This document shows, one piece after another, positions 2,842 to 50,613 of a stretch of 64,000 nucleotides of DNA; positions within the stretch are counted from its first letter, which is position 1, and the number at the start of each line of letters is the position of its first letter. Under the pieces are notes generated by a model. That model had not been told where the DNA came from, ran no database searches, and saw only the letters and a list, made by a program, of their open reading frames with translations. This stretch comes from Chloroflexota bacterium. GTDB taxonomy: Bacteria; Chloroflexota; Dehalococcoidia; SM23-28-2; RBG-16-64-32. The DNA lies in the NCBI GenBank assembly GCA_036732045.1, contig DAINDD010000002.1, positions 16,089 to 80,088 on the forward strand. Reading direction: 5' to 3'. Made by a program: the position numbers and the translations under genes.

Positions 2842-3824
2842 GCGGCCTCGGCTAGCCGATGGAAGTGTTCCGCGATGCTGTGGCGAATCCAGTCTCGGTC
2901 ACCTAAGTGGTGGTGAAGTCGCGATTCGAGCGCGCTGATGGGATATAGATTCTGCGGAGCTCGCGGGTCCCAAGCTGGTGTGGTCGCGAAGCGCGGCAGG
3001 ATTGCCGTTGAACAATTCGCAAGAAGCATGGCATCGTCCTTGCCGATCATTGCCGAAACTTCGATTCGGACGACGCCGGCAAGTGAGTAGTCGAGTCTTC
3101 CGCGGGGACCGACTCGCATGTACCAGGAGTAGCGACTACTCCCTTCAGTTCCGAACTGAAAGATTGGGGTGCGTGTCCCCGTTTCAAGAGCACTGAGTGT
3201 CCGCATTTGTTCGGCGTTCAAGTAATTCTTGGAGTGGGTCTTTACGTAGCCAAGAATAGCCTCTTCGAGTGGGAGAAGGTACGTAAGGGGTCCGTCTACG
3301 AACGTGAGCGCCGCGAGCCCAGCGCACTCGCGCGCGAGGTCTCCCTCCAATTTGCGCATGAGCACCTGCAACTGAGCCAAGACCTTGGCGCGGGTATTCT
3401 CTTTGACCCCGGCCCCCACGTAGTTGAGCGTCAGACTTCCTGCCGGGATGAGCATCGTCTCGTGCCTTCGATCCGCCCCGATGACGATTCGTCGTTGTAC
3501 TTCTTCGCGGTGAATCTCGGCCTTGCCGTGACGGTGGACGGTGACACCCGCTGCGTATGAACCGAGCAATCCGTACGCCAGCGAGTCATTCGCCTCGTCC
3601 ACGATGCCAGTATCGACGCGACGGACGCCGTCAATGAAGAAAATTGACTCGGGCGTTTCAGATGCAAGTGGCCGGATGACCTGCCAGTCATTCGTCTCGA
3701 CGAAGGCGTCTACATTGTCTGGCTCGTCGTCCTCAAGCTGCAACGCGGACTCGTATGTGGGAGTCCAGGGGTCGAGGCGAAGGGTGTGGGGCATACGTAG
3801 CCGATTGTCGCCCGCCGTTGTCAT
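2838..3824 (-). CDS. nurA: NurA-like 5'-3' nuclease
   Basis: 328 aa. N-terminal IFFIDGVRRVD Asp motif in a NurA-like position. Size, and operon position immediately upstream of and overlapping herA. Confidence 0.55.
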   Translation of the reverse strand: MTTAGDNRLRMPHTLRLDPWTPTYESALQLEDDEPDNVDAFVETNDWQVIRPLASETPESIFFIDGVRRVDTGIVDEANDSLAYGLLGSYAAGVTVHRHGKAEIHREEVQRRIVIGADRRHETMLIPAGSLTLNYVGAGVKENTRAKVLAQLQVLMRKLEGDLARECAGLAALTFVDGPLTYLLPLEEAILGYVKTHSKNYLNAEQMRTLSALETGTRTPIFQFGTEGSSRYSWYMRVGPRGRLDYSLAGVVRIEVSAMIGKDDAMLLANCSTAILPRFATTPAWDPRAPQNLYPISALESRLHHHLGDRDWIRHSIAEHFHRLAEAA

Positions 3825-4172
3825 AAGTCAACGGAAGCAGGCTGGAGATTTGTTGGCAAGGCCCTGATGTCACACTGGCACCGATAGCGCTAAAATCTCG
3901 AGCGACATTTCCGCTCATGCACGCGAGTTATGCTCCGGCAATGACTAAAGCCGAGAACAATCCGATCCCAACCACGACCCACAGCTTTGGCACTTCGCCG
4001 CCGTCGACGGTTGTAGGTATCTGTCCGACCTGCAGCTTCTGGCGCTGGCTCGAAGACCTTAAAAATCACGCCTGTCAACTCGGGTGACCAAGGAAGGAGC
4101 CCCCCAGCACTAACGCAGCGTTGAGTTGTCTGCGGACAAGAGCTTCCATGCTGTCTAACAAAGGAGGCCAGC

Positions 4173-4412
4173 ATGAAAGCGCTACCAATCCAATTCGACG
4201 AATCGATCCCCGCCTGGGAGAAGGCAATCGACGCCTTCTTGGCCGAGAAAGCGTGCCGCTCTGGCTCTATAGACATTCCGTTCGACGTGGCCATCTCCCC
4301 CGACCAAGTCCAACGCGCCAGGAATCCGCTGAACATAATGGCTGTTTTGGACGCCGAAACTGCATCCGTAATCGGTCAACCCCGAAGACCGTCCTCGCCG
4401 CTGCAGATATGA
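4173..4412 (+). CDS. hypothetical small protein (79 aa)
   Basis: Strong RBS AAAGGAGG 7 nt upstream of the ATG. Lies in a locally lower-GC patch. No recognizable domain. Confidence 0.35.
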   Translation: MKALPIQFDESIPAWEKAIDAFLAEKACRSGSIDIPFDVAISPDQVQRARNPLNIMAVLDAETASVIGQPRRPSSPLQI

Positions 4413-4578
4413 ATCGGCGTCGCCACGAGCTAATTCCGGAATTCGACGTAATCCCAAAAACATAAAATTACCAAACGAACTCCCAGTTTTGCCCACTTTC
4501 CCCCATTTCGCCTCTCCAGTCGCACCCTTGCCCCTTATCCCTTTAACGGCTCCCACGGCCGTGCCATCATTTTCATAG

Positions 4579-4887
4579 ATGATTTCGACGGGCCCCAAAT
4601 CCCAGCGTGGCAAAACCGTCTCCAGCCGCAACGCGGAGACGCACGGCATCCTCTCCAACGCACCGGTCCTCGACATCGAAGATCCCGCCGACTGGGACGC
4701 CCACCTCCAGGGCGTCCTCGAGAGTCTAGCGCCCGAAGGCTATCTCGAGACTACGATCGCCCACCGCGTCGCCACACTCCTCTGGCGAATGGCTCGCGTC
4801 GTCCGCTACGAGACCGAGATGATCAGCACCGGCATGGACTACAGGGCGACTTCAGCGAGCACTTGGTGTCGATTCCCGCTTCAATGA
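4579..4887 (+). CDS. hypothetical protein (102 aa)
   Basis: ORF in the low-GC patch. No recognizable motif. Confidence 0.2.
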   Translation: MISTGPKSQRGKTVSSRNAETHGILSNAPVLDIEDPADWDAHLQGVLESLAPEGYLETTIAHRVATLLWRMARVVRYETEMISTGMDYRATSASTWCRFPLQ

Positions 4888-4954: not shown

Positions 4955-6103
4955 CTAAAACGCGCTGACGCCCAAAAGTTCTCGGCCAAGGATCAACTTC
5001 TGGATCTGTGTCGTGCCCTCGTAGAGGGAGAGGCCGATGGCGTCGCGGAGGTAGGCCTCCACCGGGTACTCGGCCAGGTAGCCGACGCCGCCGTGCAGGG
5101 AGATCGCGGTGCGGGCGGCGCGGACGGCGGCCTCCGTCGCGAAGTGTTTGGCCATCACCACGTTCTTTGTCGCGGGCTCGCCGGCGTCGCGCTTGCGGGC
5201 CGCCTCGACCGTCAGCAGGCGCGCGGCCTCGCAGTCGGTGGCCATGTCGGCGACCATCTCCTGGATCAGTTGGTGGGCGGCGATCGGCTTGCCCCACTGC
5301 TCGCGGTGTCTGGCGTAGGCGATGCAGGCGTCCAGGCACGACTGGATGATGCCGACGGCGCAGGCGGCGGTGGACGTGCGCCCCGATTCGAGCGAAGTCT
5401 GGGCGATCTTGAAGCCGTCGCCCGCCTTACCGAGCAGACGGTCGTCGCTGACGTGGACGCCGTCGAAGAAGAGCGCGGCCGTGTTCGAGGCGAGGAGGCC
5501 GAGCTTCTCCGTGATCGGCTGCCGTTCCAGGCCGGGTGAGTTGCCGTCGACGAGGAAGGCGCTGATCCCTTTTGCGCGTGCGCCGGGGTCGGTCTTGGCG
5601 AAGACGACGATAATGTCGGCCTGACAGCCGTTGGAGATCCAGAACTTGCTGCCGGAGAGCACCCAGCCGCCCTCGTTGCGGACGGCGGCCAGCTCCATGC
5701 CGGCGGGGTCAGAGCCGGCGTTGGGCTCGGAGAGGGCGAAGGCGCCGATCTTCTTAGCGCCGAAGAGGTCCGGTAGCCAGCGGGCGCGCTGCTCGTCCGT
5801 GCCGAAGACGTGGATCGCGGTGCTGACGAGCGAGAGCTGGACAGTCAGCGCCGCCGTGAAGACAGAGGGGCTGGCGCCGCCGATCGCCTCGCAGAGGAGA
5901 ACGTAGGAGACGTTGTCGATGCCTGCGCCGCCGTGCGCCTCCGGGAACGGCCCGGCCAGCAGGCCGTTATCGGCGAGCTTACGCATGATCTCAAGCGGAA
6001 ACGATTCGTCGTTGGCGCGCTCGCGGACGTGGGGACGGATCTCGCGGTCGGCAAACGACTTCGCGGTCTGGTAGATGAGTCGTTGAGCTTCGGTCAGTTG
6101 CAT
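4955..6103 (-). CDS. acyl-CoA dehydrogenase
   Basis: ACAD signatures: GGxG, FxISNG, and the C-terminal YEGTTQIQ motif. Start taken at the internal MQLTEAQRL (M14 of the ORF). Confidence 0.9.
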   Translation of the reverse strand: MQLTEAQRLIYQTAKSFADREIRPHVRERANDESFPLEIMRKLADNGLLAGPFPEAHGGAGIDNVSYVLLCEAIGGASPSVFTAALTVQLSLVSTAIHVFGTDEQRARWLPDLFGAKKIGAFALSEPNAGSDPAGMELAAVRNEGGWVLSGSKFWISNGCQADIIVVFAKTDPGARAKGISAFLVDGNSPGLERQPITEKLGLLASNTAALFFDGVHVSDDRLLGKAGDGFKIAQTSLESGRTSTAACAVGIIQSCLDACIAYARHREQWGKPIAAHQLIQEMVADMATDCEAARLLTVEAARKRDAGEPATKNVVMAKHFATEAAVRAARTAISLHGGVGYLAEYPVEAYLRDAIGLSLYEGTTQIQKLILGRELLGVSAF

Positions 6104-6185
6104 GTGGGGCGCTCCTGCTCGTGGATGCGGCCAGTCTATCACCCGACGCTTTAACCTTCGCGCGCTCTAGGTCTAGACTGAGGTT

Positions 6186-7772
6186 GTGCGATCGAGCATC
6201 GCGAAACTGCGCTCGGCCGGCAGCTATCTCGCCTCGCTGGCGCTGGTGGCGTTGGTCTGCGGGCCGATAGCGGGTCTGCGCGAGGTCTCGGACGTCAGCA
6301 ACTCCTCGATGCTCTTCCTGCTGCCCGTTCTCGCCAGTGCCGTGTTATTCGGGCGCGGGCAGGCGATCTTCGCGGCGGTCGCCTCGTTCTTCGCCTACGA
6401 CTTTCTCTTCGTCGAGCCGCACTACACGTTCACGGTTTCGCACAGCGATGAGTACATGGCACTCGGACTGCTGCTGGTCACGGGCGTGATCACCGGCCAG
6501 CTCGCGGCGCTTCTCAGGCAGCGCGCGCTGGAGGCGGAGGCTCGTGAGAAGGAGGCCGTAGTTCTGTACGACGTTGTGCGGCTAATGGTCGAGCCGGAGC
6601 TTGAGCGCGCCCTGACGTCGGTCGCCGAAAGGCTGCGCCGGGAGCTGGCGCTGGCCGCCGTGCTGATCACGTTCGAGGAGCGGAACACGCCCAGCGTCCA
6701 GGCCGACGTAGGCGACATCGAAGCGATCAGGGTGGCGCAGCGGGCGGCGGGCGTGCCGGAGATGATCCTGGGCTCAGGGCAAGAGCCGACGGGCGCCGAG
6801 CGAGGCAAGCCCGGCCGCTGGATCCGGGTCGTTCCTCTGCACACCAGAGGCCCGGGCCCGCGTCCCGGGGGAGACCGCGCCCTCAGCATTCCGATCGATG
6901 TCGATGGGCGCCGCGCGGGCTCGATCGTACTCGTGCGGGGCGCGGGCGCGTCGCCTCTTTCGCGGGCCAACGACCGGCTGCTGATCGTCGTGGCCAACCA
7001 ACTCGGCCTGGCGATGCAGCGACTGCGGCTGCGGCGCGAGGCAACCGAAGCCGAGATCCTCCGCCGCACCGACGAACTGAGGACGGCGCTGCTCAACGCG
7101 GTCTCGCACGACCTGCGCACGCCTCTCTCATCGATCATCGCCTCGGCCGGCAGCCTCCTTCAGCGGGACGTGCAGTGGACGGAAGCCGAGCGCCGGGAGT
7201 TCACCCGAGCCATCGTCGAGGAGGCCGATCGGCTGAACCGGCTCGTCGGCAATCTGCTTGATCTTTCGCGCATCGAAGCCGGCAGCATCCGGCCGGAGAA
7301 GGGCTGGTACGACCTCGGCGCGCTGGTGGACGAAGTGGCCGGCCGCCTGCGTCGCATCTCTGCGGCGCACTCGCTGGTGCTGGACGTGCCCGAGCATCTG
7401 CCGCCGGCACATTTCGACTACGTGGAGATCGACCAGGTGATCTCTAACCTAATCGAAAACGCAGTCAAGTACACGCCGGAGGGGACGACGATCCGCGTTT
7501 CCGTTCGTGCCGCCGGAGACCAGGTAGAGATCGAGGTCGCAGACAGCGGCCCTGGCATCCCGGAGGATTCCCTTAGCGAGATCTTCCTTCCGTTTTACCG
7601 CGCGACTCCCGGCGCGGCAGCGCGGCCACAGGGGAGCGGCTTGGGACTGGCCGTCGCGCGCGGGCTGGTGGAGGCGCACGGCGGCCGCATTTGGGTAGAG
7701 AACCGTCGCGAGGGCGGCGCGCGCTTCGTCTTCACATTGCCGCTTTCGGACCGGCCGGCGGCGGCGGCATAG
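6186..7772 (+). CDS. sensor histidine kinase, KdpD C-terminal type (DUF4118 membrane domain + GAF + HisKA + HATPase_c)
   Basis: N-terminal 4-TM region is closely similar to the KdpD membrane domain (SSMLFLLPVLASAVLFGRG...DFLFVEPHYTF). H-box SHDLRTPLS. G1/G2 boxes (DSGPGIP, GSGLGLAVA). Confidence 0.85.
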   Translation: MRSSIAKLRSAGSYLASLALVALVCGPIAGLREVSDVSNSSMLFLLPVLASAVLFGRGQAIFAAVASFFAYDFLFVEPHYTFTVSHSDEYMALGLLLVTGVITGQLAALLRQRALEAEAREKEAVVLYDVVRLMVEPELERALTSVAERLRRELALAAVLITFEERNTPSVQADVGDIEAIRVAQRAAGVPEMILGSGQEPTGAERGKPGRWIRVVPLHTRGPGPRPGGDRALSIPIDVDGRRAGSIVLVRGAGASPLSRANDRLLIVVANQLGLAMQRLRLRREATEAEILRRTDELRTALLNAVSHDLRTPLSSIIASAGSLLQRDVQWTEAERREFTRAIVEEADRLNRLVGNLLDLSRIEAGSIRPEKGWYDLGALVDEVAGRLRRISAAHSLVLDVPEHLPPAHFDYVEIDQVISNLIENAVKYTPEGTTIRVSVRAAGDQVEIEVADSGPGIPEDSLSEIFLPFYRATPGAAARPQGSGLGLAVARGLVEAHGGRIWVENRREGGARFVFTLPLSDRPAAAA

Positions 7773-11648: not shown

Positions 11649-12251
11649 TCAATACTCGACGACGACATCAAACGCCGAAAGCAGTGACATTGCCTCTGGG
11701 TAAGAGAATTTCGCCTTCTTAGCCTTGTTGGCGGTGAGATCGATCGCATAGCCTTTCGCGCCGACGAAGTTTGCACCGCTGAGGTTGGTGTGCAGAAACT
11801 TGGCGCCGGTAAAGTCGGTCCGCTGGCAATCAGCTCCCGTCAGGTCGGCTTCCGAAAAATCGACTTCCAGCCCGCTGCAGTTGGACAGTCTCTTGAGCCT
11901 GAGGCCAAAGAAGCTCGAGTAGTCCAGCGCACACCGGTCGAAGGCTGCGGAGAACAGTAGCCGATCAGTCTTTGTAGAGCCAACGACTGTCCAATCAACG
12001 CCGGCCAGTTTCGAGTCGAGAAACTCCACGTCCACGAACCGGCAGTTCGGCGCGCTGAGAAGGCTCAGGTCGCAGGCCATAAACTTGCAATTGGTGAACC
12101 GGCAGTGGGAGAGTGCAGCCTCCGTCAGGATGCATCTCTCGAACGTGCAAGAGTCGAAATCGCTGGATGTAATCCGGACGCCCGGCAATTCGGCGCCCTT
12201 GAAGGTTACTCGTATATGGTTCTGGTGGCTTTCGGACAGCTCCACAGACAT
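11649..12251 (-). CDS. pentapeptide-repeat protein, Qnr/McbG/MfpA-like
   Basis: 200 aa. Two blocks of A(D/N)LxG pentapeptide repeats and a Qnr-like C-terminus (EAMSLLSAFDVVVEY compared with Qnr ...ASLLMERLGIAVIG). GC is lower than the neighbours. Confidence 0.7.
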   Translation of the reverse strand: MSVELSESHQNHIRVTFKGAELPGVRITSSDFDSCTFERCILTEAALSHCRFTNCKFMACDLSLLSAPNCRFVDVEFLDSKLAGVDWTVVGSTKTDRLLFSAAFDRCALDYSSFFGLRLKRLSNCSGLEVDFSEADLTGADCQRTDFTGAKFLHTNLSGANFVGAKGYAIDLTANKAKKAKFSYPEAMSLLSAFDVVVEY

Positions 12252-30186: not shown

Positions 30187-31638
30187 CTAGAGCTGGAGTG
30201 ACTTGACCTCGAGGTACTCCTCAAGACCGTACTTGCCAAGCTCGCGGCCGTGGCCGGACTGCTTGAAGCCACCGAACGGAGCGTTGACGTTGAAGCCGCC
30301 GCCGTTGATCTCCACCTGGCCTGTGCGCAGGCGGCGGGCGACGCGCTTGGCGCGCTCAGGGTCGCCGGACCAAACGCCACCGGCGAGGCCATATGGGGAG
30401 TCGTTGGCGATACGGATGGCGTCTTCTTCGTCCTTGTAGCCGATGATCGAAAGGACGGGCCCGAAGATCTCTTCCTGGGCGATCGCCATGTCGTTGCGCA
30501 CGTTGGAGAAGACCGTCGGCTCTACGAAGTAGCCGGTCTTGTGAGCGGTCTCAGCGCCGCCGGTGACCAGCTTCGCGCCTTCTTCCTGGCCCTTCTTGAT
30601 GTAGCCGCGGACGCGCTTGAACTGCGTCTCGGAGACCAGCGGACCGAGCAGGCTGCCTTCGGCGAAGGGGTCGCCGGTCTTGAAGTTGGCGGCGGCCTTG
30701 GCGGCGAACTTCTCGGCCTCAGCCATCTTTCCTTCGGGGACGAGCATGCGGGTGAGCGCGCTGCAAGTCTGGCCGGAGTTCTGGTAGCACTTGGCGACGC
30801 CGTCAGTCACGGCACGCTCAAAGTCAGCGTCATCCAGGATGATGTTGGCCGATTTGCCGCCGAGCTCCAGGGCGACTCGCTTGACGGTCTGCGCTGCCAG
30901 CTCGCTGACGCGCTTGCCGGCGCGAGTGGAGCCGGTGAAGGAGACCATGTCGACGTCGGGGTGTGAGGCGATCGCCTCACCGACGACGGGGCCGAAGCCG
31001 GTCACGAGGTTGAAGACGCCGGCGGGAAGCCCGGCCGCGTCAATGCACTCAGCGAGGATGAAGGCGTTGAGCGGTGCGACTTCACTGGGCTTCACGATGA
31101 CGGTACAGCCTGCAGCTAGCGCGGGCGCAACCTTGGCCGCGATCTGGTGCAGCGGGTAGTTCCACGGTGTGATGCAGCCGACGACTCCGACCGGTTCCCT
31201 GACGACGAGCGAGTTGCCGATCGTTTCTTCGAACTGCGTCTGACCGGCGTTCACTGAGGCCATGCTGAACGTCACGATCGGCACGCCAGCCTGAATGAAG
31301 CGGGACAGCGGGATCGGCATGCCGACCTCTCGTGCAATTGTGACGGCGATCTCTTCCTGCTTGGCCTGGAGGTTGGCGGTGATCTTCTGCAGGTAGGCGA
31401 CGCGCTCCTCGACTGTGGTCTGTGACCACGTCTCGAAGGCGGCCTTGGCGGCCATCACTGCCTTGTCGATGTCTTCGGCGGTGCCTTCTGGGACGCGCCC
31501 GACGACTTCTTCCGTTGTGGGGTTGATCACATCGATCATGCCTGCGCCGGTTGGCTCAACCCAGGCACCGTTAATGTAGAACTTGTCGCGGATCTGGGCA
31601 TCGCCGGCCGGGGCGGGCTTCGTTGCTTGCTGTGTCAT
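30187..31638 (-). CDS. NAD(P)-dependent aldehyde dehydrogenase
   Basis: ALDH family ([10 protein letters not shown]; catalytic Cys region GQTCSA). Confidence 0.9.
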
Positions 31639-31695
31639 TTGTGCTCTCCTTCTGGTGGAAGGGCCGAAGCCGCTCCGCTGCGTCTATATCCAGCC

Positions 31696-33156
31696 CTATT
31701 TCAGGGCCACCCAGACGGCCTTGTGCTCAGTGTACGAGTCGATCGCCTGGCGGCCTAGCTCGCGTCCGAAGCCGCTGTCCTTGTAGCCGCCCCATGGCGA
31801 GCGCGTGTCCGTAGCGCCGTACGTGTTCACCCAAACGGTGCCGGCGCGCAGTCTGTGTGCCACAGCATGCGCCTTGCCTACGTCCCTTGTCCAGACAGCG
31901 GCCGCCAGTCCGTATGGGGAGTCGTTGGCTATTCGCACGGCTTCGTCGAGGTCACTGACCGGTATTACGGAGGCAACCGGCCCGAAGATCTCTTCGCGGG
32001 CGATCCGCATGCTGTTGTTCACGTCCGCGAAAATCGTCGGCTGCACGAAGTAGCCGCGGTCGCCGATGCGTGAGCCGCCGGCGACGAGTTTCGCGCCCTC
32101 GCTGCGGCCGATGCCGATGTAGCTGAGCACGCGGTCGAACTGCTCTTCGGACACGATGGGGCCCATGTACGTCTTGGGGTCCAGCGGATCGCCGACACGA
32201 ATTGTCCTCGCGCGCTCGTTAAGGCCTTCGAGGAACGCCTCGTAGACCGACTTTTCGACGATAATGCGTGAGCCAGCGCTACAGACCTCGCCCTGGTTGA
32301 AGAAGATGCCGCCGCTGGCGCCGCGGATCGCCGCGTCCATATCAGCGTCGGCGAGGACGATGTTCGGGGACTTGCCGCCGAGCTCCAGCGAAACCTTCTT
32401 CAGCGAGGCGGCGGAAGCTCGGACGATGATGCGGCCGACCTCCGGGCTGCCGGTGAAGGCGATCTTGTTGACGTCCGGGTGCTCCACGAGCGCGGCCCCT
32501 GCATCGCCGAAGCCGGTCACGATGTTGACGACGCCGGCCGGAATGCCCGCCTCCAGGCAGAGCTCGCCTATCCTCAGCGCGGAGAGCGGCGACTGTTCCG
32601 CGGGCTTGAGGACGACGGTGCAGCCGCAGGCCAGCGCCGGCGCGAGTTTCCAGGACGCCATCATCACGGGGAAGTTCCAGGGGATGATCTGTCCGACGAC
32701 GCCCACCGGCTGCCGCAGTATGTAGGTGAACATCGGGCCGCGGACGGGGACGGTCTCGCCGTGGATCTTGTCCGCCCAACCGGCGTAGTACTCGAAGCAG
32801 TCGATGGCGGCCGGTAGGTCGACGCGCAGGCTGTTGGTCACGGGCTTGCCCGCGTCGATCGCGTCGATCTCGGCGAGATGCTGCGCGTTCTCGCGCACAA
32901 GCTCGCCCAGCTTGTACAGAAGCCGCCCCCGGTCCGCCGGATGCATCGCCGACCACTTCTCGAACGCCGCGCGTGCCGCCTTCACCGCCCGGTCGACGTC
33001 CTCAGCGCTCCCCTCCGCTACGCGCGCGATCGTTTCGCCGGTGCTGGGGTTCGGATCGTCGTAATACTTTCCGGAAGCGGGCGCGACCCATTCGCCGTTG
33101 ATCAGGATCTTCGTCGGGCTGGCGATGCCGGTTCTGTTATCGGTAACTTGTGTCAT
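31696..33156 (-). CDS. NAD(P)-dependent aldehyde dehydrogenase (paralog)
   Basis: ALDH family (ELGGKSPNIV, GEVCSAG). Confidence 0.9.
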   Translation of the reverse strand: MTQVTDNRTGIASPTKILINGEWVAPASGKYYDDPNPSTGETIARVAEGSAEDVDRAVKAARAAFEKWSAMHPADRGRLLYKLGELVRENAQHLAEIDAIDAGKPVTNSLRVDLPAAIDCFEYYAGWADKIHGETVPVRGPMFTYILRQPVGVVGQIIPWNFPVMMASWKLAPALACGCTVVLKPAEQSPLSALRIGELCLEAGIPAGVVNIVTGFGDAGAALVEHPDVNKIAFTGSPEVGRIIVRASAASLKKVSLELGGKSPNIVLADADMDAAIRGASGGIFFNQGEVCSAGSRIIVEKSVYEAFLEGLNERARTIRVGDPLDPKTYMGPIVSEEQFDRVLSYIGIGRSEGAKLVAGGSRIGDRGYFVQPTIFADVNNSMRIAREEIFGPVASVIPVSDLDEAVRIANDSPYGLAAAVWTRDVGKAHAVAHRLRAGTVWVNTYGATDTRSPWGGYKDSGFGRELGRQAIDSYTEHKAVWVALK

Positions 33157-36213: not shown

Positions 36214-37221
36214 TTGGTCTACACGATGTCCACACCCTGGACGATGCAGGGACGTGAGAATGCGATTCAAAAGGCGGTCGCAGCGGTTTACGAGCGGTAT
36301 TTCGCCAAGGGGCCGCGCTGGGTCGCCAAGCATTTGCCTCAGCGCGCTGAAATGCGCAAATACGGCGAATACGTCAGCCCCGAGTCGCGCGAGATCCTGA
36401 TTGGCGACTTCGGTGTGGAATCGTTCGTCGAGGACTACGCCCAATCGGCGATAAGCGCGTCGGGGGATAGCAAGGCCACCATGCAGACCTACGTGCAGTG
36501 GGTGTTCGACGAAACCCGGCACAGCAACGCCCTCTGGTACTGCCTCACCGACTCCGGACTCTGCACAACAGAGGAGCTGGACGCGTACAAGGACGAATGC
36601 GGCCAGGACACCTGGACGTTCGAGAGACAGACAGGCCACGAAGGCACCCCGGTTCGCGCCGCCGCGTATGCCATCGCGCAAGAACGCCAGACGAAGAAGA
36701 ATTACCACGAAATGCAAAAGCGCATCTGGGGCGAGTACGGCTCGCCGACGGATTCGGACGGGAAAGCAGTCTTCCCGGCGATCGCGGGAGTGTGCCAGAC
36801 GCTGTCAATCGACGAAGGGTTCCATGAAGGCGTCTTCCGACAGATCACGCGCGCTTACCTGAAGTACTGGCCCGACAAGGCCCTGCAGGCGATGTGGGAT
36901 GTCTACGAGAAGTACCGCATGCCGATCGTCAAGCTGCCGAACGCCGAGGCGTTCATCGACGCCGTGCTTACCAGCGGGATCGATTCGCCGCGGGCCGTCG
37001 TCAAGGATGTGCTGGAGCCGACGTACAACGCGATGGGGCTCGAGGGGCGGGGAGCGCTGCGCCGCGCGGCGCGGGAGAGCTGGGACCTGCCGGAGGGCTC
37101 GGTGCTGCAGATCGGCGAGGAGCCTATCGAGGGCATCTCGGAAGGTGCGATCGCCTACACAATGGCGTCCGACGGGCACCTGACGCGAGTTGTCCCGGAA
37201 CAGACCCCAGCGACCATCTAG
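36214..37221 (+). CDS. acyl-ACP desaturase (soluble di-iron, DesA-like)
   Basis: Two ExxH di-iron motifs (DETRHSNAL; DEGFHEG). GAGGAGG RBS. Confidence 0.85.
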   Translation: MVYTMSTPWTMQGRENAIQKAVAAVYERYFAKGPRWVAKHLPQRAEMRKYGEYVSPESREILIGDFGVESFVEDYAQSAISASGDSKATMQTYVQWVFDETRHSNALWYCLTDSGLCTTEELDAYKDECGQDTWTFERQTGHEGTPVRAAAYAIAQERQTKKNYHEMQKRIWGEYGSPTDSDGKAVFPAIAGVCQTLSIDEGFHEGVFRQITRAYLKYWPDKALQAMWDVYEKYRMPIVKLPNAEAFIDAVLTSGIDSPRAVVKDVLEPTYNAMGLEGRGALRRAARESWDLPEGSVLQIGEEPIEGISEGAIAYTMASDGHLTRVVPEQTPATI

Positions 37222-37246
37222 CGCGCTTTGGTGGGCCCGGCTGGAT
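37222..37246. repeat. distal copy of a ~25-bp direct repeat (partial tRNA 3' end; attL-like)
   Basis: CGCGCTTTGGTGGGCCCGGCTGGAT is identical to 38328-38352. Confidence 0.8.
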
Positions 37247-38327
37247 GGATATAATCCATATCCAGCATGCAAGATCGTGCCGGCGAACCAATCTCAACAG
37301 ACGAGTTCCTTCGAATCCTCGAGGAAACTGGCTCGCAGGGCGTCAACCTCTCACGGCGCAAACTAGCAAGCATCAACCTCGATGCGGCGACGTTAGCTGA
37401 CAAGCTTGGCGAGTACAGGGAATCACATGGTGACAGAACGCCAAAGTGGTGGAGTGACGTAGGAGACGTAGCTCGTCTCGATCTCCGCGGAATCATTCTC
37501 GAGGATGCAGATCTGATTCACGCGAAACTTCCCGGTGCGGATTTCTTCGACGCCCGTCTGAGGCTCGCCAATTTCGGAAGGGCCGATCTGTCAGGCTCCC
37601 TTTTGCTTTGGGCCGACCTCAGCGAGTCGTCTTTGATTAGCGCCAATCTGTCGAATGTTTCGCTGTACGGCGCAAACCTTCAAGGTGCAGACCTTACCTT
37701 CGCGAACACTGGAGGCGTACTCTGGGAGCGCGCGGCATTGGGCCGGACCAGACTATCTCGGGGACAATTGACGCCGTCGCTGCAGGACGAGGTAGAGGCG
37801 CGTAAAACAGCAAACTCAGAGAAGTTCCAAAAGGCCGCCGAGGCCTACGTAGAACATCGCCTCAACTTTCTCAGCCTAGGTCGGTATGATGACGCATCTT
37901 GGGGTCACGTTAAGGCCCAACGGCTGAAGACCGATTCAAATCGCCTTGACTTCCTAAATTACGAAAATACTTGGCGTTCAAGGACTGCTGCGTCCTTCAG
38001 ATGGATCTCAAGCAAGCTTTGGGATTGGCTGAGTGGATATGGCGAGACTCCACAAAAGCCGCTTGCCTGGGCGGGCGTACTCGCGTTGATTTTGTTTCCA
38101 CTGATCTATTGGATTGCTAGCGTCCCGGACCGGTCTGTCGGCGGTGATCCGTCGGCCATTGACTCGCTGACTTACAGCCTGACAACCTTCGGTACTCTGA
38201 GTTTCGATCGACTGCAGCCAACTACAACTGCCGCCAGTATTCTGTCCTCAACCGAGGCGTTTGCCGGGGTACTTCTCTTCTCGATGTTTATATTTACCCT
38301 GGGCAATCGAGTAGGCAAATAACGATT
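37247..38327. mobile_element. roughly 1.1-kb tRNA-associated islet bounded by direct repeats (degraded integrative-element remnant?)
   Basis: Delimited by a perfect 25-bp direct repeat, one copy of which forms the 3' end of the adjacent tRNA-Met. Carries a single cargo gene. No integrase. Confidence 0.55.
37267..38322 (+). CDS. pentapeptide-repeat protein fused to a C-terminal 2-TM pore-like (ion-channel-like) domain
   Basis: ADLxxAxLxGA repeats, then a TM-reentrant-TM region (TTFGTLSFD). Confidence 0.7.
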   Translation: MQDRAGEPISTDEFLRILEETGSQGVNLSRRKLASINLDAATLADKLGEYRESHGDRTPKWWSDVGDVARLDLRGIILEDADLIHAKLPGADFFDARLRLANFGRADLSGSLLLWADLSESSLISANLSNVSLYGANLQGADLTFANTGGVLWERAALGRTRLSRGQLTPSLQDEVEARKTANSEKFQKAAEAYVEHRLNFLSLGRYDDASWGHVKAQRLKTDSNRLDFLNYENTWRSRTAASFRWISSKLWDWLSGYGETPQKPLAWAGVLALILFPLIYWIASVPDRSVGGDPSAIDSLTYSLTTFGTLSFDRLQPTTTAASILSSTEAFAGVLLFSMFIFTLGNRVGK

Positions 38328-38352
38328 CGCGCTTTGGTGGGCCCGGCTGGAT
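38328..38352. repeat. proximal copy of the ~25-bp direct repeat (overlaps the tRNA 3' end; attR-like)
   Basis: Identical to 37222-37246. 17 nt are the tRNA acceptor/T-arm 3' end and 8 nt are flank. Confidence 0.8.
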
Positions 38353-38409
38353 TCGAACCAGCAACCGACCGGTTATGAGCCGGGCGCTCTGCCCTTGAGC
38401 TACGGGCCC
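38336..38409 (-). tRNA. tRNA-Met (anticodon CAU; could alternatively be the Ile2/lysidine type)
   Basis: Reverse complement is GGGCCCGTAGCTCAAGGGCAGAGCGCCCGGCTCATAACCGGTCGGTTGCTGGTTCGAATCCAGCCGGGCCCACCA. Cloverleaf with anticodon loop CUCAUAA, GTTCGAATC T-arm, and an encoded CCA. Confidence 0.85.
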
Positions 38410-38624
38410 GCCGGTACGCAGTTTAGCATTCAGCGCTCAGCTGTCAGCACTCAGCACAAGCATCGCCAGGTATGGTGAGACGTTAGGCCTGACATACCGC
38501 GGACTGAGTGCTCCCATCGTATTCCTTCTACGTTCGTGAGTTACGTGTAACACGATAGGCCGGGCGTCGTCTCAATATGTAGCCGCCGCTTTCGTGCGGC
38601 ATCGAACGTATAGCAGGGAGCGTT

Positions 38625-39485
38625 GTGAGCAAACCCAGTGATTACACGGGCGGTCATGTGATCGAGGTGGAACAGCCGGTACATGCTGACACGCGCAGCC
38701 TGACGCGCCACATCTGGCTGTCGCGGGCGATCGGCCTCGTGTTGCTTGTCAGCGCGCTCGGCGTGATCGCCGGCACTACCGGGTTCGGGAACACCAACTT
38801 CTTCGTGGACTCGATCGCGCTGGTCGCGTTCGCCTCGTACGTCTTCATCGCTGAAACCCGCGCCCGCAGCATTGCCGTCAACCTGGAGAAGCGTCTGCGC
38901 CTAGGCCTCCTCGTGCACAACATGGAGCTCGAGAATATGGCAATGCAGGACGACCTGACCCAGCTCTTCAACCGCCGCTATCTGTTCGAGCGGCTGGAGC
39001 GCGAGCTGGAGACGGCGAAAGCGTTCAGGCGTCCGCTGTCCGTGATCGTGATCGACCTGGACCTGATGAAGCAGGTCAACGACAACTTCGGCCACCGCGT
39101 CGGCGACGAATTGCTGACCGCGTTCGGGCGCTTTCTGCTCGACCACACGCGGACGAGCGACGTGCCGGCCCGAACGGGTGGCGACGAGTTTGCGATCATC
39201 CTGCCCGATACGTCCGACAAGGCGGCGCTGGCGCTGCGGGGAAGGCTGGCCAAGCGGCTGGAGAACATCGATCTGATCGAGAGCGACAACGTAACCATCA
39301 AGGTCACGGCGTCCTTCGGTGTTTCGAACTACCCGAAGGGCGGCGACACGGTGGACGAGATCATGCAGCAGGCTGACCTCGACATGTACGCCGAGAAGGG
39401 CCTGCGAAAGGCACAATCGACTCAGGCGCCGCAGCCTGTCGCAACCGGCGCGGGCAAGCCGCGCCTCACCAGAGCAGACGCCTAA
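38625..39485 (+). CDS. membrane-anchored diguanylate cyclase (GGDEF domain)
   Basis: Two N-terminal TM helices. GGDEF domain with RTGGDEF active site and RxxD I-site. Confidence 0.85.
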   Translation: MSKPSDYTGGHVIEVEQPVHADTRSLTRHIWLSRAIGLVLLVSALGVIAGTTGFGNTNFFVDSIALVAFASYVFIAETRARSIAVNLEKRLRLGLLVHNMELENMAMQDDLTQLFNRRYLFERLERELETAKAFRRPLSVIVIDLDLMKQVNDNFGHRVGDELLTAFGRFLLDHTRTSDVPARTGGDEFAIILPDTSDKAALALRGRLAKRLENIDLIESDNVTIKVTASFGVSNYPKGGDTVDEIMQQADLDMYAEKGLRKAQSTQAPQPVATGAGKPRLTRADA

Positions 39486-44383: not shown

Positions 44384-44405
44384 GGGGCTCCTCCGTTTCG
44401 CTCCA

Positions 44406-45485
44406 TTAAACTGGTAGTCGACGAATTTTGTCCAAAAATGCTCCTATTTCGGTTGTCCAGAAGTTTTCATCTGTCCAGAACCACTTAGCTATTAGCAGAT
44501 CTGCTAGCTCTTCAGCTAATTGCACCTTGTTGACCTCGACACCCAGTATGCCATTGATAACTCCAACCACCGATGAGTCTGCGGGCCGTGACGCCACACG
44601 CGCGATGAAGTCTTGCAAGGTCAATGTACCGATCGCGCCCATCGACGATAGGGCGGCATAGAGATGCTCCGGGTCGAATGCGGATTCGAAGTCAATCTTG
44701 AATGAGAAGGTCTCGTCGACGTGGACGATGCCCTGCTTGACAAGTTGATCAAAGATATCTCTTACCTGCCCATCATTGTCGCCTTGAAGAAAGAGTCGGT
44801 AACCTTGCTTTTTCAACTGATTGGCAAGGGCGAGGAGTTTGGTCGGCTGGCGATTACCTGCTCCGTAGTAGGAGTCGATGTCTAGATGAAGGAACCAGAG
44901 AAGGCGAGTCCTCTTCAGCCGTTCGACAAAGGCTTTTTCGCTGGCACCCTCAGTGAGAATCTTGCAACTGCCGGTGCTGAACTCAGGGATGGCCTGAAGC
45001 TGAGACGCGAAATGATCTAAGTGCTTCCGCAGTTGGCCTGTCCAGCCAAAGAACGCGGCTCGGTTTTCGTCTGTCCCCCACCAATCCAAGTGGTCCTTCC
45101 AGAGCATCCGGCCGATGTGAATCTCCGTCCCGTATACGAACTGGACAAATGAATACGAAGCATCCAGCCACGCTTGTAGTTCCTCGGGACTTCGCTGTTT
45201 GAGAATGCCGAAGACGCCACTGACGTAGTTTCGGATGATTTCGGAGGCGACCCCGCACCGGATTTCGGCTAATCGACTTGGCCGCCCGTAAGGGTCCGGC
45301 TGGGTGTACTTACAGTAGTCACTTCTTCCGCACTTCCTGTCGCATTCCATATAAGGAATCCACGTGTCGATAAAGAGCTCCGACAATTCGTCAGGCCCGT
45401 ACTCGCCGGTCAACGCGGACTTATCCAGTTCGTCGAGCATCAGAGAGAGCCCGGTTAGGTCGATGGTGGATGCCTTATCGTCCAC
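44406..45485 (-). CDS. hypothetical protein in a low-GC segment (ORFan; Cys-cluster MECDRKCGRSDYC)
   Basis: About 345-360 aa depending on the start (GTG 45485 or ATG 45440). GC is markedly lower than the flanks. No recognizable domain. The high-GC N-terminal extension in the ORF track overlaps the upstream gene and is rejected. Confidence 0.5.
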   Translation of the reverse strand: MDDKASTIDLTGLSLMLDELDKSALTGEYGPDELSELFIDTWIPYMECDRKCGRSDYCKYTQPDPYGRPSRLAEIRCGVASEIIRNYVSGVFGILKQRSPEELQAWLDASYSFVQFVYGTEIHIGRMLWKDHLDWWGTDENRAAFFGWTGQLRKHLDHFASQLQAIPEFSTGSCKILTEGASEKAFVERLKRTRLLWFLHLDIDSYYGAGNRQPTKLLALANQLKKQGYRLFLQGDNDGQVRDIFDQLVKQGIVHVDETFSFKIDFESAFDPEHLYAALSSMGAIGTLTLQDFIARVASRPADSSVVGVINGILGVEVNKVQLAEELADLLIAKWFWTDENFWTTEIGAFLDKIRRLPV

Positions 45486-45495
45486 GTGGGGTTCG

Positions 45496-48706: not shown

Positions 48707-48860
48707 TCCTTTTCGGCGCCGGGTCAGAGTCGCTCTCTCTGGCGGGCTGTCTCCGTCGATGACAGCACCAAGTAAACACCACGTAATACAGCCGTTATTG
48801 TAACCGAGCAGCCGTTAGCGCGGCCAGTGACTAGGCGATTGTGCCATGTTGAGGCTACGA

Positions 48861-49160
48861 ACGCGTCGCGGTGCGCTTGACGCGGCCTTCCAGCGGGCGA
48901 TCTGTCATGCTGAGGCGACCGCAGGCCAGTCCGAAGTTGCGAACCTGGAGAGACGGTATTCCGGATCAAACGCGGGTCGGCGGCGGGCATCCGTTTCGAT
49001 GTGATCGCCAGCCGGGTCGTCGTTCCGCAGGGCGAGATTCTTCGCTGCGGCTCAGAAGGACACGCATGGGCGGCTACAGACGCGTCGCGGTGCGCTTGAC
49101 GCGGCCTTCCAGCGGGCGATCTGTCATGTTGAGGCGGTCGCAGGCCAACCCGAAGCATCT
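48861..49160. repeat. two tandem ~220-bp units, each beginning with a ~35-bp duplicate of the hmgL 3' end
   Basis: CGCGTCGCGGTGCGCTTGACGCGGCCTTCCAGCGGGCGATCTGTCATGCTGAGGCGACCGCAGGCCAGTCCGAAG at 48861 and again at 49081. The GCGCTTGACGCGGCCTTCCAGCGGGCG part is identical to hmgL codons at 49733-49766. Unit 1 also carries a GIY-YIG 3'-end fragment and the GAGATTCTTCGCTGCGG hairpin motif. Confidence 0.7.
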
Positions 49161-49163
49161 CGC

Positions 49164-49486
49164 CTACCTGGAAAGACGGTACTCCGGGTCAAACGCGGGC
49201 TCGGTGGGGCAGTCGAACGCACTCAGATCTTTCCACTTGGGATTCTGCGCGGCCACGAGCGCGATCTCCGCCGGACCCAGCCCTTGATCTGCTTCTCCCG
49301 CTCGATCGCGGCAAGGGCGTCGCCGCCCACTTCGAAGTACACGAGGCGAGTCATCTTGTACCGGCTGGTAAATCCCTTCGTGGCTCCGCTCTTGTGTTCC
49401 GTGACGCGGCGTATGAGGTTGTTGGTCACGCCAACATAGAGCGTTCCCGAGTTGTTGGTCATGATGTAGACATAGTAGTCGCGCAC
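49164..49486 (-). pseudogene. GIY-YIG nuclease-family small protein (COG2827 type) with a frameshift
   Basis: N-terminus YYVYIMTNNSGTLYVGVTNNLIRRVTEHK...IEREKQIKGW is in one frame (ORF 49223-49663). The expected C-terminus IALVAAQNPKWKDLSAFDCPTEPAFDPEYRLSR is in another (ORF 49164-49535). Confidence 0.5.
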
Positions 49487-49536
49487 GCCCGGACTGTACG
49501 CAGTGTGGCCGGTTCCCGGAAGTGGCAAATGGCAAT

Positions 49537-49732
49537 GCGACGACATGTCATGCTGAGGCTGCCGCAGGCCAGTCCGAAGCATCTCGCCCAACCGCGAAGA
49601 CGACGACGCTCGCTGGTGAAAGACGCGGCGTTGGGGGACGGGCATCTTTGGCGTTGCCCCCAATTCGGGTCGTCGTTCTGCAGGGCGAGATTCTTCGCTG
49701 CGGTTCAGAATGACACGGGGCGCGGCGCGGTG
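49537..49732. repeat. third unit of the repeat family, between GIY-YIG and hmgL
   Basis: TGTCATGCTGAGGCTGCCGCAGGCCAGTCCGAAGCATCTCGCC ... GTCGTCGTTCTGCAGGGCGAGATTCTTCGCTGCGGTTCAGAATGACACG, matching the units at 48901 and 49121. Confidence 0.6.
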
Positions 49733-50613
49733 CGCTTGACGCGGCCTTCCAGCGGGCGGCCGATGATGTCCTCCGCAAGCCAGGCGGCATCCAGGAGCGC
49801 CATCTCGTCCACACCGGTGGCGATCCCCATACGGTGCAGCATCGACACCATGTCCTCCGTCGCAACGTTACCGGAGGCGCCCGGTGCGTACGGGCAGCCG
49901 CCAAGGCCGCCGATCGAGCCGTCAAACTGCGCCGCGCCGGCTTGCATCGCGGTGACGACGTTGGCCAGCGCCATCCCGCGCGTGTCATGGAAGTGCAGTC
50001 GTATCTCGACCGCCGGCATCTGCTCAGCGAGGCGCGTGACAAGCTCGAACACCTGGCGCGGGTTGCCGACGCCGATCGTATCGCCCAGCGCGATGGCGCT
50101 GGCGCCGCCGTCCCGCAGCTCACGGGCGATCTCCAGCACGCGCTCCGGGGCGACCTCGCCCTCGTACGGGCAGCCGAAGGCCGTCGAGATGTAACCGCTC
50201 CAAGGGACCCCTGCTTCGGTCGCCAGCGCGGCGACGTTGCGGATCGCCTCCAGCGACTCGGCGACGCTGCGGTTGACGTTGGCGCGGTTGTGCGCTTCGC
50301 TGGCGGAGACGACGACGGCGATCTCGTCGACGCGCGCCTCGATGGCGTTCCGCGCGCCGGTCTCGTTTGGGACAAGGCCGATGTAGGTCACGCCGGGCCG
50401 GCGCTCGATCGCGGCCATCACCTCGGAGGCGTTGGTCATCTGGGGGATCGCCTTCGCGCTCACAAAAGACGCTGCTTCAATGCGCGCGATGTCGGTCCGC
50501 GAGAGCGCATCGATCAGCCGCACTTTGTCTTCGAGCGAGATGATGCGCGACTCGTTCTGCAGTCCGTCGCGCGGGCCGACTTCGGTGATGGTGACGTGTG
50601 GCGGCCACTTCAC
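49705..50613 (-). CDS. hydroxymethylglutaryl-CoA lyase
   Basis: TIM-barrel HMGL family (VTITEVGPRDGLQNE...). Confidence 0.9.
   Translation of the reverse strand: MKWPPHVTITEVGPRDGLQNESRIISLEDKVRLIDALSRTDIARIEAASFVSAKAIPQMTNASEVMAAIERRPGVTYIGLVPNETGARNAIEARVDEIAVVVSASEAHNRANVNRSVAESLEAIRNVAALATEAGVPWSGYISTAFGCPYEGEVAPERVLEIARELRDGGASAIALGDTIGVGNPRQVFELVTRLAEQMPAVEIRLHFHDTRGMALANVVTAMQAGAAQFDGSIGGLGGCPYAPGASGNVATEDMVSMLHRMGIATGVDEMALLDAAWLAEDIIGRPLEGRVKRTAPRPVSF

Follow-up and report, generated by a model that had tools for sequence, protein, structure and literature searches.

Cis-mobilizable elements (CIMEs), as defined from tandems that ICEs (integrative and conjugative elements) and IMEs (integrative and mobilizable elements) form in streptococci, keep both attachment sites, attL and attR, carry no genes for integration and transfer, and are mobilised by a recombinase from elsewhere (PMC5704250). 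Among the Dehalococcoidia, the islands at the ssrA gene of Dehalococcoides include 15 that lack the integration module, and these islands are marked by a 20-bp repeat with its boundary in the T-loop (McMurdie et al., 2011; PMC3146451). The locus described here lies in a stretch of 64,000 nucleotides from an uncultured Dehalococcoidia bacterium of the phylum Chloroflexota (hereafter the window), in which an islet of 1,081 bp with a single open reading frame (ORF) has been inserted at the 3' end of a tRNA gene with anticodon CAT, between a gene for an acyl-ACP-desaturase-like protein and a gene for a GGDEF diguanylate cyclase, and is bounded by a perfect 25-bp direct repeat. We hold, with moderate confidence, that this islet is an att-flanked element of the CIME type, made by a recombinase and now non-autonomous.

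The 25-mer CGCGCTTTGGTGGGCCCGGCTGGAT occurs exactly twice in the window, at 37222-37246 and 38328-38352, both times on the + strand. No third copy was found in the window even at up to three mismatches, the bases beyond the 25 positions do not match between the left and right copies, and the number of matches expected by chance was 0 (100 shuffles). An earlier interpretation made from the letters alone (the sequence-only reading) had reported this repeat in direct orientation and had called a chance origin essentially impossible; the exact search and the shuffles bear out both statements, and the repeat, which that reading allowed might on recounting prove shorter than about 15 bp, is exactly 25 bp long. 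The only tRNA gene that ARAGORN calls in the window, a tRNA-Met(cat), is intact and lies on the minus strand at 38335-38409, where the Rfam tRNA model RF00005 scores 68.1 bits. The right, attR-like copy of the repeat (38328..38352, exact 25-mer) comprises nucleotides 59-76 of this tRNA, i.e., 18 nt made up of two T-loop bases, the 3' strand of the T-stem, the 3' strand of the acceptor stem, the discriminator base and the encoded CCA, together with 7 nt of flank, CGCGCTT (38328-38334). The boundary of the repeat on the tRNA side thus falls between A58 and A59, in the T-loop. The sequence-only reading was right in taking the second copy for the 3' end of a tRNA on the minus strand, but it counted 8 nt of flank where the ARAGORN coordinates leave 7.

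The left, attL-like copy (37222..37246, exact 25-mer), which consists of CGCGCTT and an 18-nt copy of tRNA nucleotides 59-76, begins directly past the TAG stop codon (37219-37221) of the upstream ORF. This is the desaturase-like gene (36214..37221, + strand; Pfam FA_desaturase_2, E 3.9e-9; named acyl-ACP desaturase in a source record), which is syntenic in every relative examined and forms the left host flank. The right host flank, beyond the tRNA, is the GGDEF diguanylate cyclase gene (38625..39485, + strand; Pfam GGDEF, E 3.5e-41), which is also syntenic in relatives. Between the repeats lies the islet (37247..38327, + strand), composed of 20 nt, one ORF and 5 nt; the description of the bounded segment as about 1.08 kb long, with a single gene and no integrase, agrees with the 1,081 bp, the one ORF and the lack of any integrase match in it.

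The islet is an insertion, as empty sites in relatives show. L034 and L043, which belong to the same 90% protein cluster, have only 6-8 nt of flank between the desaturase stop codon and the tRNA, followed by the GGDEF gene; L034 reads TAG-CGCGGCTT-tRNA and L043 TAG-CGCGAT-tRNA. In L011, whose desaturase protein is 80% identical, the stop codon is followed by 8 nt, the tRNA and then the GGDEF gene, and the more distant L015 has the desaturase gene, a spacer of ~50-90 nt, the tRNA and the GGDEF gene, but no islet. The composition of the islet is foreign: its GC content is 54.1% vs 64.7% for the window (sd 3.2, same-size windows), and the GC content at third codon positions of its gene, the cargo gene, is 57.7% vs 82-85% in the neighbouring genes. 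A search of related genomes for an empty site was among the checks proposed with the sequence-only reading, all of which turned out in its favour, and these sites and the foreign composition support its view of the repeats as attL and attR of an insertion into the tRNA 3' end. Relatives carry tail copies of ~12-68 nt or nothing at all; the same 25-bp duplication around unrelated content was not encountered in them.

The arrangement recurs in other assemblies and strains. The exact cargo protein is present in identical context on 13 contigs, which derive from different samples and assemblers (JGI, ENA, NCBI and Logan assemblies); the window is 100% identical to contig Ga0120158_10000173 of JGI 3300013772. 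Both 25-mer repeats are also present in two diverged strains, L024 and L033, and the 75-nt tRNA is identical in the window, L033 and the empty-site strain L034.

Integration has recurred at this locus, a hot spot in this Dehalococcoidia species. Strains with flanks 91-96% identical to those of the window hold other content between the desaturase and GGDEF genes: nine strains with a flank divergence of 4-9% comprise two empty sites, the islet of the window in three lineages, and at least four other inserts, which are bounded by tRNA-tail copies of ~12, 13, 26, 61 and 68 nt. The insert of L030 is 4.6 kb long, with six ORFs and a left tRNA-tail copy of ~26 nt, and that of L039 has a 68-nt copy and two ORFs of unknown function. 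In L031 and L032 a 15-nt copy, a 185-nt remnant, a 72-nt copy and a 1.9-kb insert with a DnaJ-domain protein follow one another, and the 185-nt remnant has a homologue in L042. The array of the latter strain has four copies and takes in the final ~32 nt of the desaturase gene a second time, as well as a tRNA fragment with a mutated anticodon; one module of this array stands directly 3' of the desaturase gene in L041. Beside the intact tRNA, an arm of ~45 nt with the pattern ACTGAGCCGGT..CGTATCTGG..AGCG.CCGGTCA is 85-90% conserved in L030, L031, L039 and L042 despite their different cargo (alignment and module map), and L031 and L042 share a left end of ~150 nt, i.e., the 61-nt tRNA-tail copy and ~90 nt next to it. 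Such conserved ends around variable cargo fit ends that are recognised by a recombinase. In the tandem arrays of L031 and L042 the older, more distal copies carry mutations, which fits successive integrations into the intact tRNA, as described for tycheposon islands, for the accretion of CIMEs and IMEs and for the ssrA islands of Dehalococcoides. The islet of the window shares only tRNA-derived bases with the other inserts (module map).

At positions 7263-7309 of L042 the second desaturase 3' end (~32 nt with the stop codon and flank) and 13 nt of tRNA tail are joined to a module that is the one directly following the real desaturase gene in L041. This duplicated end shows that host flank has been shuffled between strains along with the inserts, and that homologous or illegitimate recombination has been at work besides recombination at att sites. 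Another small strain-specific insert in the same neighbourhood is found in L039, where a hicBA toxin-antitoxin pair (HicB-like antitoxin, then HicA toxin; 5872-6419) that is absent from the window lies between an aldehyde dehydrogenase gene and a NUDIX gene.

The divergence of the islet differs strongly from that of its flanks. Compared with the window, L024 shows 7 differences over the 1081 positions of the islet vs 57 over 1008 in the desaturase gene (Fisher p = 5e-12); the latter are mostly at third codon positions, and the last flank mismatch is located 15 nt before the repeat. For L033 the counts are 11/1081 in the islet, two of which are single-base homopolymer indels and possibly sequencing errors, vs 84/1141 in the flanking genes (Fisher p = 1e-14). 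In detail, the L033 flanks differ at 13/285 positions in the desaturase gene, 40/215 (18.6%) in the spacer between the tRNA and the GGDEF gene, and 71/856 in the GGDEF gene, divergence resuming 22 nt beyond the tRNA. For these two strains the divergence of the islet (0.65-1.0%) is thus ~5-9 times lower than that of the flanks (4.6-8.3%), so that the islet goes back to a common ancestor much more recent than that of its surroundings. The flanks of the three carriers diverge by 4.6-8.8% and are no closer to one another than to those of strains with an empty site or another insert. The islet, or its flanks, has therefore been exchanged recently among diverged lineages. Over the final 101 nt of the desaturase gene the window and L033 show 0 mismatches, in a tract where all other pairs have 4-26. 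This identical tract indicates that ~100 nt of flank was carried along with the islet, a mark of homologous recombination, whereas the boundary in L024 is compatible with either homologous or site-specific exchange.

If the islet is indeed a non-autonomous element of the CIME type, an integration of the Campbell type into the tRNA tail, catalysed by a recombinase and proceeding through a circular intermediate, would have left a complete tRNA at one end and the 25-bp tail copy at the other. Since no recombinase is encoded in the islet, it would be either what a larger element left behind or a passenger in need of a recombinase from another source. After its arrival, the islet would have passed between diverged lineages that occur together, in at least one case along with ~100 nt of flank, and homologous recombination across the conserved tRNA and the end of the desaturase gene may have been one route of its spread.

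The search of the window for an integrase combined Pfam on the larger ORFs across 1-64000 with precomputed Pfam calls for 27-48 kb and 52-58 kb. Neither the islet nor the larger window ORFs tested gave an integrase match, the result for the islet being in line with the sequence-only reading; several of the ORFs have no match of any kind, so that a very divergent recombinase is possible. No integrase or recombinase was detected in the other inserts with Pfam and PHROGs (9-10 ORFs), and inspection by eye of the insert proteins of L039 and L042 revealed no recombinase-like features. For an integration at this site the expected junction sequences are …GCGACCATCTAG-CGCGCTTTGGTGGGCCCGGCTGGAT-TCGAACCAGCAACC… for attB and …GTAGGCAAATAACGATT-CGCGCTTTGGTGGGCCCGGCTGGAT-GGATATAATCCATATCCAGCATG… for attP. 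Among metagenome contigs matching the 25-mer no empty site was seen, the single match being L024. The 18-mer of the tRNA tail gave four matches in phage and provirus contigs (L035, L036, L037 and L038). Those in L036, in what was read as a portal-type gene, and in L038, which has a Walker-A ATPase motif, come without a tRNA call and were set aside as chance matches within coding sequence; in L035 the 18-mer lies inside a called tRNA-Met and in L037 at the contig end.

A number of points weigh against the interpretation that we favour. No cognate recombinase was found in the islet, the tested window ORFs or the ORFs of the other inserts, and no attP circle junction was recovered, the sole metagenome contig with the 25-mer (L024) being an occupied site. 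A larger parental element carrying the cargo gene was found neither among the 13 contigs nor in the protein database, and a 45%-identical homologue of the gene occurs elsewhere. The repeat holds 7 nt of species-specific host flank, for which relatives read CGCGGCTT, CGCGAT, CGCCGAT, CACGGT or CGAGAGCT; an incoming att site must thus already have matched the flank of this particular host, a match for which the favoured interpretation gives no reason. CGCGCTT is also present directly 3' of the desaturase stop codon in L031 and L032, two strains without the islet of the window. With only 20 nt and 5 nt outside the ORF there is no non-coding room for arm-type binding sites, and the islet does not have the 45-nt arm that is common to the other inserts. 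Finally, the contrast in divergence, which was measured on short contigs, could stem from repeated replacement of the flanks by recombination and not from movement of the islet.

Other explanations for the islet have to be weighed against the same observations. It might, although we think this unlikely, be an active minimal cassette, of which a circle of 1,106 bp (the islet and one 25-mer) excises and re-integrates into empty tRNA sites by means of a recombinase whose gene lies elsewhere in the genome or on a helper element; this enzyme would need only a short core site, as is the case for large serine recombinases such as DsiB of Dehalococcoides, the spread would be site-specific, and an attP junction …AACGATT-25mer-GGATATAATCC… would be expected. 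This would be in agreement with the perfect state of both repeats in three lineages and with the position of the divergence, which in L024 extends up to 15 nt from the left repeat and in L033 resumes 22 nt past the tRNA, as if the unit ended at the att sites. The other inserts, with their conserved ends, variable cargo and lack of an integrase match, also point in this direction, as does a repeat of ~20 bp that ends in the T-loop, like that of the serine-recombinase ssrA islands. However, the searches mentioned above brought up no recombinase, circle junction or helper element, the identical host tract of 101 nt in the window and L033 is not predicted by site-specific transfer, and the ends of the islet are unlike those of the other inserts. 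The homologous recombination signature in L033 would rather suit a fixed, decayed remnant, i.e., a larger integrase-bearing island that integrated once, was cut down by deletions to the one gene that was kept and has no mobility at its att sites, so that the lineages are linked only by homologous recombination of the region or its flanks in a freely recombining species. We think this rather unlikely; it overlaps with the favoured explanation and differs from it only in denying present att-dependent mobility. The absence of an integrase match and the near absence of non-coding DNA would follow from such a decay, clear remnants do occur elsewhere at the site (the 185-nt piece in L031 and L032, with its homologue in L042), and the duplicated desaturase 3' end within the L042 array testifies to shuffling that is not site-specific. 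On the other hand, the deletions must have removed all but 20 nt and 5 nt beside the ORF and yet have left both 25-bp repeats perfect, and no larger island relative was found among the 13 contigs or in the protein database.

An explanation that does account for the 7-nt flank is that the 25 bp represent a host target copied by staggered cuts of some other machinery, i.e., a transposase, a casposase-like enzyme or an insertion by reverse transcription. The repeat is, flank included, wholly native to the empty site of the host, and of the tRNA it takes in exactly the 18 nt at the 3' end, stopping short of A58. Eighteen nucleotides is also the length of a retroviral primer-binding site, possibly by coincidence. 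Nevertheless, we regard such a target-site duplication as very improbable. The islet has no terminal inverted repeats, its ends GGATATAATCC… and …AATAACGATT not being inverted repeats of each other upon inspection, and no transposase, Cas1 or reverse-transcriptase match was obtained among the tested window ORFs. To our knowledge, no bacterial transposition system makes 25-bp duplications. The neighbouring inserts, with repeats of 12-68 nt and conserved element arms, fit att identity blocks and not a duplication of fixed length, and the 7 nt of genomic flank could not have come from a mature tRNA primer. A casposon or transposon was rejected on the missing inverted repeats and matching enzyme, and tRNA-primed reverse transcription on the 7 nt of genomic flank within the repeat and on the fact that no reverse transcriptase was seen. 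That the structure is an assembly artefact, or an old local duplication without any insertion, has practically no probability. Only the short size of the repeat would speak for it, and it is contradicted by the 13 contigs, the two diverged strains, the empty sites, the alternative inserts and the foreign composition; an artefact of assembly in particular is excluded because the 13 contigs derive from different samples and both repeats recur in the two diverged strains.

The cargo gene (37267..38322, + strand) encodes a protein of 351 aa with pentapeptide repeats at ~residues 66-170 and a two-helix pore resembling that of K+ channels at ~residues 270-349. In the first part, tandem A(D/N)LXX repeats are present, PF00805 (Pentapeptide) is matched with E 8e-16 (57.7 bits, cut-off 20.2), and pentapeptide proteins of the PDB match the cargo at E 5e-19. 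The C-terminal match to Ion_trans_2 is, with 25.1 bits, barely above the Pfam cut-off of 22.5; a profile of the family (26 members) matches the pores of NaK and KirBac at E ~1e-9. At the position of the selectivity filter the cargo has TTFGTLSFD in place of the TFTTxGYGD of the family consensus, the GYGD filter motif of the family being replaced by SFDR, and it lacks a canonical TxGYGD. With this filter the protein is therefore unlikely to be a canonical K+-selective channel. Its architecture is the same as that of an uncharacterised family that combines pentapeptide repeats with Ion_trans_2. The nearest homologue among 5.8 billion proteins (P0002) is 45% identical, and the protein cluster of the cargo has four members, all in this desaturase/tRNA context. 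P0002 has a Rex-like gene on one side and mreB on the other, no tRNA is nearby, and the idea that the family travels as tRNA-flanked cassettes is unsupported by this context.

A possible role of the cargo in defence was also considered. PADLOC gave no match for the cargo, and the model of HalA, the effector of the Hailong system, scores 15.4 bits on the pore region, far under its NCBIfam equivalog cut-off of 250. An identification as HalA was rejected on this score and the lack of a PADLOC match; the faint similarity may serve as a distant lead but does not denote membership. Relatives of the cargo's pentapeptide domain are fused to TIR and TRADD-N domains. These fusions are only circumstantial, and with no PADLOC match and a sub-threshold HalA score the cargo was not accepted as a defence gene. 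In L033 the cargo gene has frame-breaking single-base insertions in a T run and an A run, at ~563 and 1355 of L033 (window 37498 and 38289), which reflect either decay of the gene in this lineage or sequencing error in homopolymers. A second, unrelated pentapeptide-repeat protein of 200 aa, without a channel domain, is encoded 25 kb away at 11649-12251 (minus strand), beside genes of a two-component system.

Judging from the nucleotides around the left repeat, a promoter at the attL junction probably drives transcription of the cargo gene. The candidate (37228..37255, + strand) consists of TTGGTG, which lies in the repeat, 16 nt, and a perfect TATAAT at 37250-37255; it is not listed by a consensus scan, its -35 hexamer matching at only 3/6 positions. 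The mRNA would be nearly leaderless because the ATG of the cargo follows 11 nt past the candidate -10 box. An imperfect hairpin, GCTGGATGGAT-ATA-ATCCAT-ATCCAGC (37240..37266, + strand), can form from the final 7 nt of the left repeat together with the bases that open the islet; it is the only element kept in the centroid fold. As a structured RNA it was rejected: the segment folds like shuffled sequence (z = 0.10) and has no Rfam match.

A bolder view of the locus would see the tRNA(CAU) tail as a platform for the exchange of cassettes, on which integrase-less units of ~0.5-4.7 kb, the smallest no more than a bare ORF, are captured, stacked and swapped by a dedicated recombinase encoded elsewhere, in a manner resembling integrons but with the 3' end of a tRNA as anchor, and on which the cassette of the window would deliver a one-protein membrane-channel effector, possibly used in conflict with phages or between cells. 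We consider this scenario quite unlikely.

The tRNA gene itself deserves a remark. It is no initiator, because G1:C72 is paired, and it also has the pairs C4-G69 and C5-G68. In E. coli these two pairs mark tRNA-Ile2, the CAU anticodon of which is modified to lysidine. The tRNA(CAT) of the window may thus decode Ile rather than Met. Upstream of it, on the minus strand, lies a promoter-like site (38420..38447) with CTGACA, 16 nt and TAAACT, which is a consensus match only.

Further irregularities occur elsewhere in the window. A second insertion of ~1.1 kb (44393-45491) with a GC content of ~53% and one ORF (44406 to ~45440, minus strand, no Pfam match) is flanked by an acyl-CoA dehydrogenase gene and a luciferase-like gene; there is neither a tRNA nor a direct repeat at its ends, and it is absent in L034, where the flanks meet at L034 position 14039. 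The region 48853-49795 contains three copies of the last ~50 nt of an HMGL-like gene (49705-50613, minus strand), the third of which (49712-49795) is located inside the 3' end of the gene itself. After each of the two upstream copies comes a repeated motif, …TGTCATGCTGAGGC..GCAGGCC..CCGAAG…, that has one more copy at 49541-49602, and a small GIY-YIG-type ORF was read by eye on the reverse strand between the copies (~49240-49480). The pattern suggests that a small element has inserted repeatedly at the gene 3' end, with duplication of that end each time. At 30187-33156 two tandem paralogous aldehyde dehydrogenase genes, ~65% identical (blastn) with local segments of 70-87%, account for several long direct repeats in the window. 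The GC content drops below 57% at 3401-4700, and the ORFs around it (1189-2841 and 2838-3824) have no Pfam match. A weak Hammerhead_II match in the GGDEF gene (39013-39080; 25 bits vs a gathering score of 37, E 0.05) is most likely due to chance.

In comparison with described systems, the islet has in common with the CIMEs of streptococcal ICE and IME tandems (PMC5704250) that it possesses attL- and attR-like sites, which include the end of the target tRNA, and no genes for integration or transfer, and that elements accumulate in tandem at the site (here in L031 and L042). It is different in that no parental ICE or IME has been identified and no integrase-encoding partner is adjacent to it in the window. 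It is also far smaller than the described CIMEs, with one ORF and 20 + 5 non-coding nucleotides, and the bacterium that carries it, an uncultured member of the Dehalococcoidia, has no known conjugative elements at the site. With the ssrA islands of Dehalococcoides (PMC3146451) it shares the bacterial class, a ~20-bp repeat that copies the 3' end of a tRNA-like gene and has its boundary in the T-loop, tandem islands, strain-specific cargo of low GC content, and the occurrence of integrase-less islands, some of which were proposed to be cis-mobilizable. Measured against those features, the target at our site is a tRNA(CAU) gene and not tmRNA, the cargo is not a reductive dehalogenase, and a serine recombinase module of the DsiB type is present neither in the islet nor in the other inserts at the site. 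The inserts at the tRNA(CAU) site range from 0.2 to 4.7 kb, whereas ssrA islands are reportedly ~10-30 kb in size.

The tycheposons of Prochlorococcus (bioRxiv 10.1101/2020.12.28.424599) likewise occupy hot spots adjacent to tRNA genes where new integrations push older elements away, leave partial tRNA copies between elements, and include degenerate, integrase-less remnants that still carry cargo. They are, however, defined by their own integrase and replication modules, neither of which is seen here, and concern another lineage and another tRNA. With classical tRNA islands and prophages the islet shares an identity block that runs from within the tRNA to its 3' end, a restored tRNA and a partial copy displaced to the far end. 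It deviates from them in the lack of an integrase beside the tRNA and in the extension of the identity block by 7 nt into host-specific flank. Integration sites in tRNA genes are said, after Williams, to fall into sublocation classes, and the 18-nt block of the islet, which starts from the T-loop, would fit the T-loop class. Of the characters by which tRNA islands are recognised, the tail repeat with an intact tRNA, the empty site and the foreign composition are present, but an integrase inside the island is not; the combination that distinguishes CIMEs, attL and attR without integration and transfer genes, is present. An integron gene cassette was considered and rejected: only 5 nt follow the ORF, no integrase was seen in the tested ORFs, and Rfam finds only the tRNA at the gathering score.

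The locus provides a clean, strain-resolved example of a tRNA tail as a hot spot of gene exchange in an uncultured lineage of the Chloroflexota. If a trans-acting recombinase were found, the inserts would be among the smallest att-bounded mobilisable units known, and the concept of the ssrA islands would be extended to tRNA genes and to non-dehalogenating relatives; if there is no such recombinase, the locus would show how integration remnants circulate by homologous recombination. The islet forms a natural gain/loss series for the function of its cargo, a member of a widespread and uncharacterised family. On the basis of the comparisons made above, the known kinds closest to the islet are the CIMEs, the integrase-less ssrA islands of Dehalococcoides and degenerate tycheposon remnants; next to these it is notable for its minimal size and for the strain-level evidence of recent exchange, although it would not surprise a specialist.

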